Assembly (NCBI GenBank): GCA_009758405.1
Contig: WSBC01000004.1
Location: forward strand, 114,634 to 178,633
Direction: 5' to 3'
Length of the DNA: 64,000 nt
Origin: Methanobacteriota archaeon
GTDB lineage: Archaea; Thermoplasmatota; Thermoplasmata; Thermoplasmatales; ARK-15
Of the stretch, positions 7,312 through 52,154 are shown one piece after another; the first letter of the stretch is position 1, and the number at the start of each line of letters is the position of its first letter. Under the pieces are notes generated by a model, which worked only from the letters and a program-made list of their open reading frames with translations, was not told where the DNA came from and did not search any database. Made by a program: the position numbers and the translations under genes.

Positions 7312-8453
7312 AATTTGATCCCTTATTACTGACAAAAAGACACAATCAATATAGGAATAGTTCAATTAATCTTCTTCCAAGCGAAAATATTGTTAGTGAA
7401 AAGGTTAAATATATTCTTGGTAGTGATCTTGCTTCAAGGTATTCACTTACCCTGAATGGTGGAAATGCTTACGGGGGCACAAGATATATAGATGAAATAA
7501 TAAGCAATGGAGAGAATATTATTTCCTCACTCTTTAATGTAAAATTTGCTGAAATAAGGCCACTTTCAGGTCATATTTCTGCAATGATTGCTCTACTTTC
7601 AATTGCAAATAAAAATGGAAAAATTATGGCCATTTATCCAGAAAATGGTGGCTACGATGGTTATTCCCAAGGTTATTTGCCTGACATACTTTCATTGAAC
7701 TCTAGAGCAATACCCTTTGATAACAAAAGGTGGAATATAGATTATGAAGGCCTTGAGGATGCCGTTAGAGCTTATAGGCCAGATGTAATTGTATTAGGTG
7801 CAAGTTATTTCTTATTCCCCTACGATTTAAAATATATTAAGGATCTATCAGAATCTTACAATTTCAAGATTATTTATGATTCCTCCCATGTTATGGGACT
7901 TATTGCAGGTGGTGAATTTCAAAAGGATATATTCAAATTTACAGATATTGTATATGGTTCGACACATAAATCCTTTTTTGGGCCCCAGGGAGGTATATTG
8001 CTTACAAATGATGAATACCTTTATGAAAAAATTAAAAACAATGTTGTTTGGAGGACAATGGACAATTATCATTTAAACAGGCTTGCAGCACTTGTCCAGG
8101 CCTCTTTAGAAATGAAAAAATATGGTAAAGATTATGCAATTAACGTAATAAAAAATTCGAAAAGACTAGCCAAAAACCTTGATGAATATGGTTTTGGGGT
8201 AAAATCCTTTGATGGGGAATATACACAGTCCCATCAGATACTTATAAAAAATAAGGAATTATGTCATATTCTCGAAAAATCAAGGATAATTATTGATTGT
8301 GTAGGTAGAATGGGCACAAATGAAGTAACTAGACTAGGTTTTAATTTAAAGGATATTGATAAACTTTCTGAACTCATAATGCTCTCTCTTGAAAAAAATG
8401 TATCTAAGGAAGTGATTACATTCAGAAAAATGTTCAAGGTGAAGTACTGTTAA
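7308..8453 (+). CDS. glyA: Serine hydroxymethyltransferase-like PLP enzyme (short form, 381 aa)
   Basis: INLLPSENIVSEKV, RPLSGHISAM, DSSHVMGLIAGG, GSTHKSFFGPQGGILL (PLP lysine context). Confidence 0.75.
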   Translation: MKFDPLLLTKRHNQYRNSSINLLPSENIVSEKVKYILGSDLASRYSLTLNGGNAYGGTRYIDEIISNGENIISSLFNVKFAEIRPLSGHISAMIALLSIANKNGKIMAIYPENGGYDGYSQGYLPDILSLNSRAIPFDNKRWNIDYEGLEDAVRAYRPDVIVLGASYFLFPYDLKYIKDLSESYNFKIIYDSSHVMGLIAGGEFQKDIFKFTDIVYGSTHKSFFGPQGGILLTNDEYLYEKIKNNVVWRTMDNYHLNRLAALVQASLEMKKYGKDYAINVIKNSKRLAKNLDEYGFGVKSFDGEYTQSHQILIKNKELCHILEKSRIIIDCVGRMGTNEVTRLGFNLKDIDKLSELIMLSLEKNVSKEVITFRKMFKVKYC

Positions 8454-9375
8454 ATATTTTATCAATTATGAATTTTGGATCAAATTTAATAATATCTTCA
8501 TATCCCTGGCCTATTCCAAGGAAAATTATGGGTTTTTTAATTTCAAATGATAGACTAATGGCCGCCCCTCCTTTTGCATCAGCATCCACCTTACATAATA
8601 TTATTGAATCAAAACCTACATTTTCATCGAATGTTTTTGCCTGATTTATAATGTCATTCCCAGCCAATGCATCTCCAACAAAGATTGTATGGTTGGGTTT
8701 AGCTACCCTCTTTATTTTTTTCATTTCCTCAATTAGGTTTTTATTTGTCTGCATTCTTCCTGCAGTATCTATAAGAACTACATGTTTTCCCTTTGATTTT
8801 GCGTGTGAAATCGCATCAAATGCAACACTTGCAGGATCACTTCCTGGCTGGTGCTTGATTAGGGTTACATTAAGTTTATTTGCATGATACTCAAGCTGTT
8901 CGATTGCACCAGCCCTAAAGGTATCTGCAGCTGCTATTACTGGTACTAAACCCATTTTTTGTATCTGTCTTGCAATCTTTGCAATCGTTGTTGTTTTTCC
9001 AGTTCCATTAATACCCAGAAACATTATTACATAGGGTTTTTCAGATTTTTCAATCTCCTCTAGGAGATCAAAATTCGAATTTGAAAGTATATTTATAAGT
9101 GTTTCTTTAATTATTTGTTCCACAACCTTTTCCGGATCTGTGCCTATTTTTATCTTTAATCCAAGCACCCTTTCCCTTATCCTTGATCTTATTTCTTCAG
9201 CAACATCGTATGCAACATCTGCCTCTAAAAGTGAGATTTCAAATTCATCCAGAATTTCATCAAGTCTTTTTTCATTTATTTTCTTACCTATTATTCCAGC
9301 GGATTCCTCAACGCTTACCTCCTCGCTTAGCTTTTTCTTAAAAATGTTGAGCTTTTCTTTAAGGATTTTGAACAT
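8434..9375 (-). CDS. ftsY: Signal recognition particle receptor FtsY
   Basis: Likely start MFKILKEKL at 9375; SRP54-type GTPase motifs GINGTGKTTT, DTAGR, CKVDADAKGG; converges on glyA with 20-nt overlap. Confidence 0.9.
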   Translation of the reverse strand: MFKILKEKLNIFKKKLSEEVSVEESAGIIGKKINEKRLDEILDEFEISLLEADVAYDVAEEIRSRIRERVLGLKIKIGTDPEKVVEQIIKETLINILSNSNFDLLEEIEKSEKPYVIMFLGINGTGKTTTIAKIARQIQKMGLVPVIAAADTFRAGAIEQLEYHANKLNVTLIKHQPGSDPASVAFDAISHAKSKGKHVVLIDTAGRMQTNKNLIEEMKKIKRVAKPNHTIFVGDALAGNDIINQAKTFDENVGFDSIILCKVDADAKGGAAISLSFEIKKPIIFLGIGQGYEDIIKFDPKFIIDKIFNSTSP

Positions 9376-9796
9376 TTGACCTACCCTGGTACTTGTTATA
9401 TATCTCCTCAACCTTCCTCTCAATGGCAAGGTACTGTCCCTGTACCTTTTCACTTTCCTGACTGAGCTTTAAATGTAAATCTTCCATATCTTTTATCCTT
9501 GATCTAATCATCTCCAGTGCTCTATCAATGCTACTTTCTATAATTACCCCACTACCAAGAGGTATCATTGCCCTCTTTTTTTCACTCGGATTTAAATAAA
9601 TATAGGTATCTGCGCCTATGTTTACAAGCAATTCCTTTTCCTCTAGCTTCAAATAATTTTCTAAGGTCACCCTTGCTCTATTGTGTTCTTCAATCTGTTC
9701 CTTTAGATATGCTATTTGAACGCTTAAATTCTCCATGTGCTTTTTTAAGATGTCTGCGGTAGCAATTAAATCCTCTAGTGTATTCTCATTCTCCAT
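9359..9796 (-). CDS. pfdA: Prefoldin alpha subunit
   Basis: ~146 aa from MENENTLEDL (9796); coiled coil-beta hairpin-coiled coil layout; conserved LX-pfdA-ftsY neighbourhood. Confidence 0.75.
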   Translation of the reverse strand: MENENTLEDLIATADILKKHMENLSVQIAYLKEQIEEHNRARVTLENYLKLEEKELLVNIGADTYIYLNPSEKKRAMIPLGSGVIIESSIDRALEMIRSRIKDMEDLHLKLSQESEKVQGQYLAIERKVEEIYNKYQGRSNVQNP

Positions 9797-10031
9797 TTTC
9801 TCCACCTGCTTTCTTGTACCTATGTATTGCTCTTGGATCGGTAGCATCCTTAAGTGGTATTGAGTATGCATCCTCAATTCTAATTTCCCTTCTTTTCTTC
9901 CTGTATATACTTCCTAGGAGTGAGTAGAAATAATCCTCTGCCTCTTGCTTATTCTTCGCAGTTACCTCCTTGCTAATATGTACCCAATTTTTGCCTTCTT
10001 TGTAATTTCCTATTATTCTATAGATTTTCAC
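9786..10031 (-). CDS. rpl18a: 50S ribosomal protein L18Ae/LX
   Basis: 81 aa MKIYRIIGNYKEGKNWVHISKEVTAKNKQEAEDYFYSLLGSIYRKKRREIRIED; family pattern and position upstream of pfdA. Confidence 0.7.
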   Translation of the reverse strand: MKIYRIIGNYKEGKNWVHISKEVTAKNKQEAEDYFYSLLGSIYRKKRREIRIEDAYSIPLKDATDPRAIHRYKKAGGENGE

Positions 10032-11272
10032 TTAATCACCCCCGAAAATTTACTTTTTGATAACTTGAGTGCCTCAAGACCTGGCATCTCTTCACCAGAT
10101 AAAAAGTTTATCAATGCACCGCCACCAACACTAACGTGTGTGAATTTCCTGTTAAGATCCAACTTTGCAATAACAGATATTGTATGTCCCCCTCCTGCAA
10201 CCTTAAAACAATCAAGATCGGCTATTGCCCTGAATATCTCTATAGTTCCTATTGCAAATTCTTCGATCTCATAAACACCCATAGGCCCATTAAGTATTAT
10301 TGCCCCAGAGTCCTTTAACATTTCTTTATATTTTGCAACTGTGCCGATTCCAATGTCCATAATTGGATCCTCCACAGGAAGTTCTGAAATTTCTACCTCA
10401 TATCTATGTCCATCTTTTTTAATTGCAAGATCCTCGGGAAGTACTATCTTATCTCCGTATTTGGATAATAATTCCTTGCAAATGTTAAGAAGTTCATCCA
10501 ACTCTCCAAGCTCCTTTTTAAGAAATTCCACATTTACCTTCCCTATATCGACACCCTTTGACAGTAGGAAAAGGTTTGATACAAGCCCTCCAGTAAATAT
10601 TTTATCTATTATACCTTTGTTGAGAAAATTTTTAGCTACCTTTAATGAGTCATCCACCTTTGCTCCTGCAAGTATAGCATATTTTGGTCTTGTATTATCG
10701 CTAAGGAATTTTGAAAGCATCGTAATCTCTTTATCCATTAGAACCCCCGCTAAATTGGGTAAATCCTCCGCAAAACCCACCAGCGTGGTCTGTGGTCTAT
10801 GTATTGCTGCAAATGCATCATTGATGAAATAGTCAAAAAGGGGTGAAAGCCTTTTTACAATGTGGGATTTCCTCTGTATTGATATTGGTTCATCTGCAAG
10901 TACCACATCCTCTGAATAGAACCTTGTATTTTCAAGGAGTATCATATCACCATCCTTCATTGACTTAATTTTTTCAATAACAAATGATTCAAAGAGTCCA
11001 TCCACATACTCAACAGGTCTCCTCAATAATCTTGAAAGCACCTCTGCATGTCTTTTGGTAGTAAGGAAATCCTTTTTCCCTGGCCTTGACTGATGAGCCA
11101 TTATAACTACCTTAGATTCTCCTAGCCTTTTAAGTGTATCCAGATGTGCAACAAACCTTGAGGTATCAAGTATTTCACCCGTTTCCGTATTTACCGGAGA
11201 ATTAAGATCAAGTCTAACAAGCACGCGTTTCCCCTTAAGATCAAAATCATCCATGGTGAAATAATCTTTCAT
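10028..11272 (-). CDS. pgk: Phosphoglycerate kinase
   Basis: 414 aa; KRVLVRLDLNSP, MAHQSRPG, GAKVDDS, GGGHT..., VSVGGGA. Confidence 0.9.
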   Translation of the reverse strand: MKDYFTMDDFDLKGKRVLVRLDLNSPVNTETGEILDTSRFVAHLDTLKRLGESKVVIMAHQSRPGKKDFLTTKRHAEVLSRLLRRPVEYVDGLFESFVIEKIKSMKDGDMILLENTRFYSEDVVLADEPISIQRKSHIVKRLSPLFDYFINDAFAAIHRPQTTLVGFAEDLPNLAGVLMDKEITMLSKFLSDNTRPKYAILAGAKVDDSLKVAKNFLNKGIIDKIFTGGLVSNLFLLSKGVDIGKVNVEFLKKELGELDELLNICKELLSKYGDKIVLPEDLAIKKDGHRYEVEISELPVEDPIMDIGIGTVAKYKEMLKDSGAIILNGPMGVYEIEEFAIGTIEIFRAIADLDCFKVAGGGHTISVIAKLDLNRKFTHVSVGGGALINFLSGEEMPGLEALKLSKSKFSGVIK

Positions 11273-43606: not shown

Positions 43607-43990
43607 TCATCTCCATTCCATATAACCCTTTTCTATAGCATATAATAGGCCTACAAGCATTATACCTATAAATGTAAATGCTATGAGATATGCATTGAAA
43701 ATATATTTTGCACTGAATGCCCATGGTATAAGGAGAACAACAGCCACGTCAAAAACTGTAAACATTAAGGCCACAAAATAATATTGTATATGTATTGGAC
43801 CCTTTGCATCACCAATTGTTTTTTCACCACATTCATATGTATCATTTCTATCCTTCTCCTGGTGTTTCATTGAAATTTTATTCTCTATCCAAAGCAGGAG
43901 AAAGACTGCAACAAGAGTAAACACAAAAGCCACCGCTATGATAAGGTAACCACCATCATACATAGGCAATTCACTAAACCTATAATGCAT
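43607..43990 (-). CDS. nuoA: NADH-quinone oxidoreductase subunit A
   Basis: 127 aa, 3 TM; TYECGE...[15 protein letters not shown]. Confidence 0.8.
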
Positions 43991-44058
43991 AACTATATTT
44001 TAAAGATTTCATGAAAAAAATATGAAAAATTTATTAATAAATTACACAATATACTGAT

Positions 44059-44117
44059 GCCACTGTGATGATCCCTACAATTGCTGAAAATGATGAAAGA
44101 CGGGCGGGCTGAGTGGC
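44059..44117 (+). ncRNA. Box C/D sRNA (2'-O-methylation guide)
   Basis: GCCAC-t-GTGATGA(C)-tccctacaattg-CTGA(D')-aaa-TGATGA(C')-aagacgggcggg-CTGA(D)-GTGGC. Both spacers are 12 nt, with a 5-bp terminal stem (GCCAC/GTGGC). AT-rich TATA-like TTATTAATAAATT ~20-30 nt upstream. Confidence 0.8.
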
Positions 44118-44130
44118 AAACAGTGATGTT

Positions 44131-44415
44131 ATGAGAATCCTTGTAATATACTACGATGATTCGGATATGAAGGTTTTAAATTATGTAAGGGATTTTGCCA
44201 AGGATATTTTAATATATACCCCTGATGAAAATAGGCCAATTCCTGGGTATAATAATTTTCATGGGGATCTTTTGGAAATTTTGGAAAAATTGAAGGGAAA
44301 TGTTGATGTTATTGCATTTAAAAAAAGAAAAAACTATCCTACAGGTAGTTTCTTCATAGGAGATCTTATCGATCGTTTAAAATCCATGGGATTTAAGATC
44401 CTAGTTATTTCTTAA
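44131..44415 (+). CDS. Hypothetical protein (~94 aa)
   Basis: MRILVIYYDDSDMKVLNYVRDFAKD... The track GTG start at 44113 lies inside the C/D sRNA terminal stem, so ATG 44131 is preferred. Confidence 0.45.
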   Translation: MRILVIYYDDSDMKVLNYVRDFAKDILIYTPDENRPIPGYNNFHGDLLEILEKLKGNVDVIAFKKRKNYPTGSFFIGDLIDRLKSMGFKILVIS

Positions 44416-52081: not shown

Positions 52082-52154
52082 TGCCGTGGGCCGGGATTGA
52101 ACCGGCGGCCTCCAGATCTTCAGTCTGGCGCTCTCCCAGCTGAGCTACCACGGC
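52082..52154 (-). tRNA. tRNA-Phe (GAA)
   Basis: GCCGUGGUAGCUCAGCUGGGAGAGCGCCAGACUGAAGAUCUGGAGGCCGCCGGUUCAAUCCCGGCCCACGGCA folds as a cloverleaf with anticodon loop CU-GAA-GA; no encoded CCA; GC-rich island in an AT-rich spacer. Confidence 0.95.

Follow-up and report, generated by a model that had tools for sequence, protein, structure and literature searches.

The stretch of DNA analyzed here, 64,000 nucleotides (nt) from an uncultured Methanobacteriota archaeon of the Thermoplasmata (hereafter the window), carries a 59-nt element at positions 44059-44117 of the forward strand, in the spacer between nuoA and a small open reading frame (ORF). This element is very probably a functional archaeal box C/D small RNA (sRNA), a previously uncatalogued member of a well-known RNA class, and one of its two guides is likely to direct ribose methylation of C1402 in 16S ribosomal RNA (rRNA). 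Its architecture is the canonical double-guide one of archaeal C/D sRNAs, and strong purifying selection acts on the element. Orthologues that share its D guide are found across the Thermoplasmatota, and their terminal stems change in a compensatory way. An earlier note on this DNA, made from the letters alone, had proposed an unannotated canonical C/D sRNA at this place, and the architecture, meaningful Rfam matches that all belong to C/D families, the conservation, and the rRNA complement described below all bear that proposal out.

The element reads GCCAC-U-GUGAUGA-UCCCUACAAUUG-CUGA-AAA-UGAUGA-AAGACGGGCGGG-CUGA-GUGGC. All four boxes match their consensus, both guide spacers are 12 nt long, the D'-C' linker has 3 nt, and a perfect 5-bp terminal stem closes the RNA, exactly as the earlier note had described. 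The 5' half of the stem, GCCAC (44059-44063), pairs in the predicted minimum free energy structure with the 3' half, GUGGC (44113-44117), which contains the GTG that gene callers take as the start of the ORF. A single U (44064) separates the 5' stem from box C, GUGAUGA (44065-44071; consensus RUGAUGA), whose UGAUG is invariant in the 16 orthologues introduced below. The D' guide UCCCUACAAUUG (44072-44083) is followed by box D', CUGA (44084-44087), which is present in 16 of 16 orthologues, with two rows of the MAFFT alignment offset by one column. The AAA linker (44088-44090) forms the loop of the internal kink-loop and varies among the orthologues in sequence and, between 3 and 6 nt, in length. 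Box C', UGAUGA (44091-44096), is invariant in all 16, the search patterns having demanded ATGA or TGATGA at this place. The D guide AAGACGGGCGGG (44097-44108), complementary at positions 2-10 from box D to 16S 1399-1407, leads into box D, CUGA (44109-44112), which occurs in all orthologues and was likewise demanded by the search patterns. When the 59 nt were folded, the terminal stem alone formed and both guides stayed unpaired, which is the picture expected for a C/D sRNA, and the overall stability of the fold was no better than that of shuffled sequence (z=0.38). The G+C content of the RNA is 53%, compared with 13% in the 68-nt spacer upstream and 35.5% in the whole window, in agreement with the GC-rich patch in an AT-rich spacer that had been noticed before.

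A strict regular expression for the four boxes, allowing spacers of 10-14, 2-9, and 10-14 nt, was run over both strands of the window. The pattern matched once, and it matched in 0 of 200 dinucleotide-preserving shuffles. Under a composition model with independent and identically distributed bases, 1.6e-5 matches are expected per window, and 2.8e-9 when two 12-nt spacers and a 5-bp stem are included. A heuristic scan for other C/D sRNAs in the window turned up 44059-44117 alone. The element is unannotated because no Rfam family reaches its gathering score over it; at the gathering thresholds, the search of the whole window reported a single tRNA. At permissive thresholds, all meaningful matches over the element were to C/D families, archaeal or eukaryotic, the best being Sulfolobus sR2 with 27 bits (E ~1e-4) against a gathering score of 42. 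The covariance-model check proposed in the earlier note was thus favorable as to the class of RNA matched but not as to the score. Since the C/D families in Rfam are guide-specific, an element with a new pair of guides should score below threshold, and a sub-threshold score does not mean that the element is not a C/D sRNA.

To judge the conservation of the element, we compared it within its own species and with a sister species, in which the adjacent ORF is 70% identical. Within the species, six contigs were identical apart from a single G-to-A substitution at the box-proximal end of the D' guide. The sister species has the same order of nuoA, sRNA, and ORF, and 56 of the 59 sRNA positions are identical; the three changes fall at D' guide positions 1-2 and at D guide position 12, counted from the box. 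As calibration, the 60 nt upstream together with the spacer to the ATG of the ORF showed 42 identities in 75 positions, and the third codon positions of the ORF showed 54 in 95. The conservation of the sRNA exceeds both that of the non-coding flanks (Fisher p=1.2e-7) and that of the third codon positions (Fisher p=6e-8).

Furthermore, species-representative genomes (596 Gb) were scanned with the pattern ATGAN{1,4}GACGGGCGGNCTGA, in which the spacing between the D guide core and box D is fixed. Among the matches listed, at least six from Thermoplasmatota (DHVE2 group, Aciduliprofundum, and Thermoplasmata) had the complete architecture, and as a control of specificity, 0 of the 110 bacterial chance matches had a C box plus a D' box upstream. 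A metagenome scan in which all four boxes and the guide were demanded added seven further orthologues. In total, 16 distinct Thermoplasmatota orthologues from DHVE2, Aciduliprofundum, and Thermoplasmata keep the boxes and the D guide, with guide spacers of 11-13 nt. The terminal stem was paired in 80 of 80 cells over the 16 sequences, compared with 41-59% when the 3' strand was slid, and 0 of 500 column shuffles reached the observed pairing or covariation score. At the fourth stem pair, nine sequences have C-G, four A-U, two G-C, and one U.G. Conservation of the boxes in relatives with covariation in the stem, a further check put forward in the earlier note, is borne out by this set taken together with the selection test against the sister species. 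Across this set, the boxes, the stem, and one guide are fixed, and close relatives differ in the second guide and in the surroundings of the gene, which may have a terminator of its own, lie 3' of another gene, or sit in the 5' leader of an ORF. Nothing in this is unexpected for archaeal C/D sRNAs. Separately, the D guide core followed by CUGA was seen in Haloquadratum walsbyi (L100 2156-2345) and in a Bathyarchaeota metagenome-assembled genome (MAG; L118 4291-4481). These two copies have plausible but degenerate C and internal boxes upstream and no clear terminal stem, and they could be remote relatives in the same guide family beyond the Thermoplasmatota.

For the target of the D guide, E. 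coli 16S rRNA was used as the numbering reference. Positions 2-10 of the guide, counted from box D, form nine consecutive Watson-Crick pairs, eight of them G-C, with CCGCCCGUC, which is E. coli 16S 1399-1407. This stretch is part of the universally conserved decoding-center sequence. Under the +5 rule, the nucleotide opposite guide position 5 is C1402. The core of the guide, GACGGGCGG, was demanded by the search patterns, and position 12 is the sole difference from the sister species. The rule published for predicting targets asks for a run of nine or more canonical pairs with rRNA or tRNA that includes the +5 site (PMC4644070), and the D guide has this number when E. coli 16S stands in for the conserved stretch. 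The earlier note had said that its reading would fail if neither guide had an rRNA or tRNA complement of at least 9 nt, and the nine pairs of the D guide with E. coli 16S avert this. The residues quoted for Nanoarchaeum equitans at 1401-1410 agree with the E. coli stretch (PMC5389701). On the strength of this complementarity, we consider C1402 the likely ribose-methylation substrate of the sRNA.

C1402 is ribose-methylated in all three domains, as far as Archaea have been studied. In E. coli it is m4Cm, made by RsmH and RsmI (PMC11551388, PMC11542601), and a review table equates E. coli Cm1402 with Pyrococcus abyssi Cm1369, yeast Cm1639, human Cm1703, and Arabidopsis Cm1645, the last of these guided by AtU43 (PMC11542601). 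In N. equitans, Cm1402 was detected by RiboMeth-seq, and the authors reported "no obvious sRNA candidate" for it (PMC5389701). Predictions in helix 44 are sparse in the survey of seven archaeal species; for the C1402 position it has only two starred C1389* entries, the star denoting a mismatch at the target site, and ACGGGCGG is absent from all 489 sRNAs of that survey (PMC4644070 supplement). A literature search for a named Pyrococcus guide to Cm1369 turned up the review table alone. The D guide is a clean candidate guide for 2'-O-methylation of archaeal 16S C1402, a site whose archaeal guides are poorly documented and at which methylation is made by a protein enzyme in Bacteria and by U43/snR70-type small nucleolar ribonucleoproteins (RNPs) in Eukarya, and has been mapped without a guide in N. 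equitans.

The D' guide behaves differently from the D guide among relatives. Positions 3-12 from box D', UCCCUACAAU, are identical in the sister species, and positions 1-2 alone vary. At a neutral identity of 0.57, the probability of at least 10 identities in 12 is 0.056, and that of ten identities in a row, a figure calculated post hoc, is 0.0036. In the relative L144, the D' guide is wholly different (TATTGCTAAGGG), and in the DHVE2-type orthologues a core, TTCAGCCTT, does not change, the variation being at positions 1-2 and 12. A fixed core with varying ends looks like selection on the pairing core, and the D' guide is probably functional. Against E. coli 16S, 23S, and 5S rRNA, the guide gave only 7-nt runs (16S 1506, 5S 97), all of them mismatched at positions 4-5, and no target was found in tRNA-Phe, the window, or the related loci with G.U pairs allowed. 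Another candidate site was the 3' strand of helix 44 immediately before GUCGUAACAAGG; the metagenome search for the 12-mer gave 0 matches, which leaves this hypothesis unsupported rather than disproved, because a 12-mer is too strict when guide positions 1-2 are probably unpaired. Guides without a recognizable rRNA target make up about a quarter to a third in archaea (PMC4644070, PMC7994747), including 28% of the Pyrobaculum guides (PMC7994747), and the D' guide may be such an orphan guide.

Two further observations concern D' guides of relatives. The L144 guide resembles the reverse complement of the window guide (ATTG-TA-GGG against ATTGCTAAGGG), and a genuine resemblance could mean that the two guides pair with opposite strands of the same rRNA helix; the resemblance was rejected as not significant, being reached in 1158 of 20000 shuffles (p ~0.06). 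In the DHVE2-type loci (L052, L097, L125, L139-L143, and L145), TTCAGCCTT can pair with E. coli 23S 2521-2531 (CUGGGGCUGAA) when two G.U pairs are included. With E. coli 23S as a stand-in, the +5 nucleotide would be G2525 in the peptidyl-transferase region, which we offer as a lead only.

Upstream of the sRNA, a BRE/TATA-like element (transcription factor B recognition element plus TATA box) can be recognized at 44024-44039 on the forward strand as GAAAAA followed by TTTATTAATA. Its segment GAAAAA-TTTATTAA occupies 44024-44037, and the TATA-like part is centered 25.5 nt before 44059, within the distance of about 20-30 nt at which the earlier note had placed an A/T-rich TATA-like box. Archaeal TATA boxes lie near -26 relative to the transcription start. 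GAAAAATTTAWTTAAT is kept in the sister species amid a diverged and much longer spacer, and an A/T box is found 25-36 nt upstream of most AT-rich orthologues, in whichever genomic context they lie. By its sequence and its distance, which fit archaeal promoter geometry, 44024-44039 is a putative promoter. The spacer from nuoA to the ORF measures 140 nt in the window (43991-44130) and 375 nt in the sister species (L129 9626-10000); its alignable parts are the nuoA-proximal part, a stretch of about 45 nt directly upstream of the sRNA, and the sRNA itself, and nothing else in it can be aligned. Downstream, a 13-nt spacer (44118-44130) that contains a Shine-Dalgarno-like AGUGAU (44122-44127) separates the sRNA from the ATG, and no T-run terminator was found between sRNA and ORF in the window or in the sister species. 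The BRE/TATA-like box upstream and the missing T-run make cotranscription of the sRNA and the small ORF likely, and processing of the sRNA from the leader of the ORF, as the promoter-like box, the 13-nt gap, and the absent T-run would allow, fits this layout. Archaeal C/D genes that lie within 25 nt of an ORF and genes that have TATA-like promoters of their own have both been documented (PMC7994747).

These features can be combined into a mechanism. Transcription would most likely start at or next to the first nucleotide of the stem, driven from the BRE/TATA-like box, and would continue into the small ORF. The sRNA would then be excised from the 5' leader of the mRNA, or protected within it as an RNP. 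By analogy with the established biology of C/D RNPs, L7Ae would bind the terminal kink-turn (k-turn) formed by boxes C and D and the internal kink-loop formed by C' and D', and Nop5 and fibrillarin would assemble on the L7Ae-bound motifs. Positions 2-10 of the D guide would pair with 16S 1399-1407, and fibrillarin would 2'-O-methylate the nucleotide opposite position 5, C1402, in the P-site and decoding center.

The small ORF itself (44131-44415, forward strand) encodes 94 residues from ATG 44131. It has no Pfam family, and a search of 5.8 billion proteins gave only two clusters of relatives; a further homologue, of 97 residues, is encoded in L144 (10272-10565). The protein is apparently an orphan confined to this lineage of Thermoplasmata. 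Gene callers and all automatic annotations of the species start the ORF at GTG 44113, which is in frame with ATG 44131 and opens the mechanically longest ORF (100 residues). If that start were true, 5 nt would be shared by the sRNA and the ORF, and such overlaps form a known class, about 7% of archaeal C/D genes overlapping the 5' end of an ORF (PMC7994747). The comparison with relatives points the other way. The homologues P0002/P0033 have 94 residues, are 70% identical, and align from residue 7 of the 100-residue ORF, and in all 11 sister-species contigs, the GTG of the stem is followed by GCT or GCC and then by TAA, and the frame of this GTG is not that of the ATG. Moreover, AGTGAT with 3 nt to the ATG is kept in the sister species, and the bases next to it differ. 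A start at GTG 44113 is therefore highly improbable, and the 94-residue homologues together with the in-frame TAA after GTG in the sister species place the start at ATG 44131, the codon preferred in the earlier note, which had recognized that GTG 44113 lies in the terminal stem. What keeps the GTG conserved is its place in the RNA stem. This result corrects a start codon that the automatic annotations of the species place inside an RNA, and recognition of the sRNA adds a missing RNA gene to these MAGs.

The position of the element so close to the ORF also raises the question of whether it acts primarily in cis, as a k-turn in the 5' leader through which L7Ae would control translation or stability of the mRNA, with no role as a guide in trans. 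Between the end of the element and the ATG are 13 nt, which contain the Shine-Dalgarno-like sequence and no terminator, and this arrangement is kept in the sister species; moreover, binding of L7Ae to k-turns in mRNA leaders has been reported (PMC5539422), as has reduced expression of a gene whose 5' end is overlapped by a C/D gene (PMC7994747). The relatives speak against such a role as the primary one. L144, a relative with a nuoDCBA operon and a very similar NuoB of 152 residues, has the sRNA at about 8826-8891 on the reverse strand with the same stem, boxes, and D guide. There an MFS transporter gene (8906-10207) precedes the sRNA, with 19 nt between its stop codon and the sRNA, which is co-directional with nuoA (8313-8705); the homologue of the small ORF is found some 1.4 kb away on the opposite strand. 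Because this copy does not have the small ORF alongside, linkage to the ORF is not essential to the RNA. The DHVE2-type copies, in turn, follow an OsmC-like gene on its 3' side and have T-runs of their own after the stem, and neither two 12-nt spacers nor a guide that stays complementary to 16S 1399-1407 throughout the phylum would be required of a cis-acting k-turn. We therefore consider a purely cis-acting element very improbable, and a secondary cis effect on the ORF in this lineage possible. Synteny was rejected as a route to distant orthologues, the DHVE2-type copies adjoining neither nuoA nor the small ORF.

It could also be asked whether the element is a functionless cluster of UGAUGA and CUGA words that came together by chance in an intergenic spacer. 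These words are short, pairs of a C box and a D box alone occur five times in the window against 2.3 expected, and no Rfam family scores above its gathering threshold. The complete four-box pattern, however, was absent from the shuffles and has the minute expectation given above; in addition, the conservation of 95% against about 56% in the flanks, the high G+C content within a 13% G+C spacer, and the orthologues that occur in other genomic contexts with compensatory stem changes are not what a chance cluster would leave. Conservation and covariation effectively refute this explanation, the probability of which we regard as negligible. Some points do count against a functional guide RNA directed at C1402. 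The target rests on universal conservation of 1399-1407, checked on E. coli 16S and on the quoted N. equitans residues, and the duplex has the minimum length of 9 bp, leaving guide positions 1, 11, and 12 unpaired. The complement of the D' guide was not found in the window, the related loci, E. coli 16S, 23S, and 5S rRNA, or the helix 44 metagenome test. The stem covariation rests mostly on one pair, and the sequences are related; finally, the invariance of the D guide, box D, and box C' is partly by construction, since the search patterns demanded them. A functional C/D sRNA nevertheless remains very probable to us, and C1402 its likely substrate.

A more far-reaching reading, which would join all of these parts, is unlikely as a whole. 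It holds that the element is the Thermoplasmatota member of an uncatalogued archaeal guide family installing Cm1402, the only ribose methylation of the small subunit shared by the three domains, and that this family is the counterpart, possibly the ancestor, of U43/snR70. The gene would have been captured in the leader of the ORF, where RNP assembly would also gate expression of the ORF, and its D' guide would be swapped freely among close relatives.

With regard to the gene location, the left neighbor of the element (43607-43990, reverse strand) is NuoA (Pfam Oxidored_q4, E=5e-25), the first gene of the nuo operon. At least 21 contigs from MAGs and from JGI and ENA metagenomes carry the same NuoB. 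The NuoB and NuoD of the window are identical to MAG proteins that NCBI names "Thermoplasmata archaeon", and close members of the NuoB and NuoD clusters are labeled Aciduliprofundum sp. or Thermoplasmatales archaeon. The region around the element, at about 33-54 kb of the window (equal to L001 1-20459), contains by Pfam labels several genes of RNA modification and ribosome biogenesis, namely a GCD14/Trm61-like gene, a fusion of TsaD and RIO1 (Kae1-Bud32), EMG1/Nep1, a THUMP-domain protein, and several S-adenosylmethionine methyltransferases. A tRNA-Phe gene (52082-52154, reverse strand) was the sole RNA gene detected in the window besides the sRNA, and neither the window nor the related loci contained rRNA.

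Compared with known archaeal box C/D sRNAs, such as Sulfolobus sR1-sR2 (RF01152/RF01139) and Pyrococcus snoPyro_CD (RF00095), the element has the same boxes, 12-nt spacers, and a short linker. It also shares with them the short terminal stem, the total length of about 55-60 nt, an rRNA-complementary guide with the +5 nucleotide inside the duplex, the proximity to an ORF, and the TATA-like box upstream. Its guides differ from those of all families in Rfam, as the best score of 27 bits against a gathering score of 42 reflects, and its host belongs to the Thermoplasmata, a class outside the seven-species and Pyrobaculum surveys.

The eukaryotic U43/SNORD43/snR70 class has the same target nucleotide (18S Cm1703 in human, Cm1639 in yeast, and Cm1645 in Arabidopsis; PMC11542601). 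The Rfam consensus of snoU43 ends in GGGCGGaCUGA and the element in GGGCGG-G-CUGA, which is the same core in the same register to box D. The identity is confined to GGGCGG-N-CUGA, the snoU43 model (RF01174), with 16.5 bits (E=1.8), stays below its gathering score of 45, and the size and remaining sequence of the element are unrelated to this class. The sRNA would thus work like U43/snR70, whereas homology or membership in that family is not supported. Each of the two guides has to match an rRNA sequence that does not vary, so that convergence and common descent are equally likely. The bacterial enzyme RsmI, acting with RsmH, gives the same predicted product, a 2'-O-methyl group on 16S C1402 (PMC11542601, PMC11551388), by an entirely different mechanism, as RsmI is a stand-alone protein methyltransferase without an RNA guide. 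Among archaea, the same rRNA position is methylated in N. equitans (Cm1402; PMC5389701) and P. abyssi (Cm1369; PMC11542601, Table 2). Whereas the two 16S C1389* predictions (Dennis et al. 2015) have a mismatch at the target site, the guide described here is a clean nine-pair Watson-Crick match.

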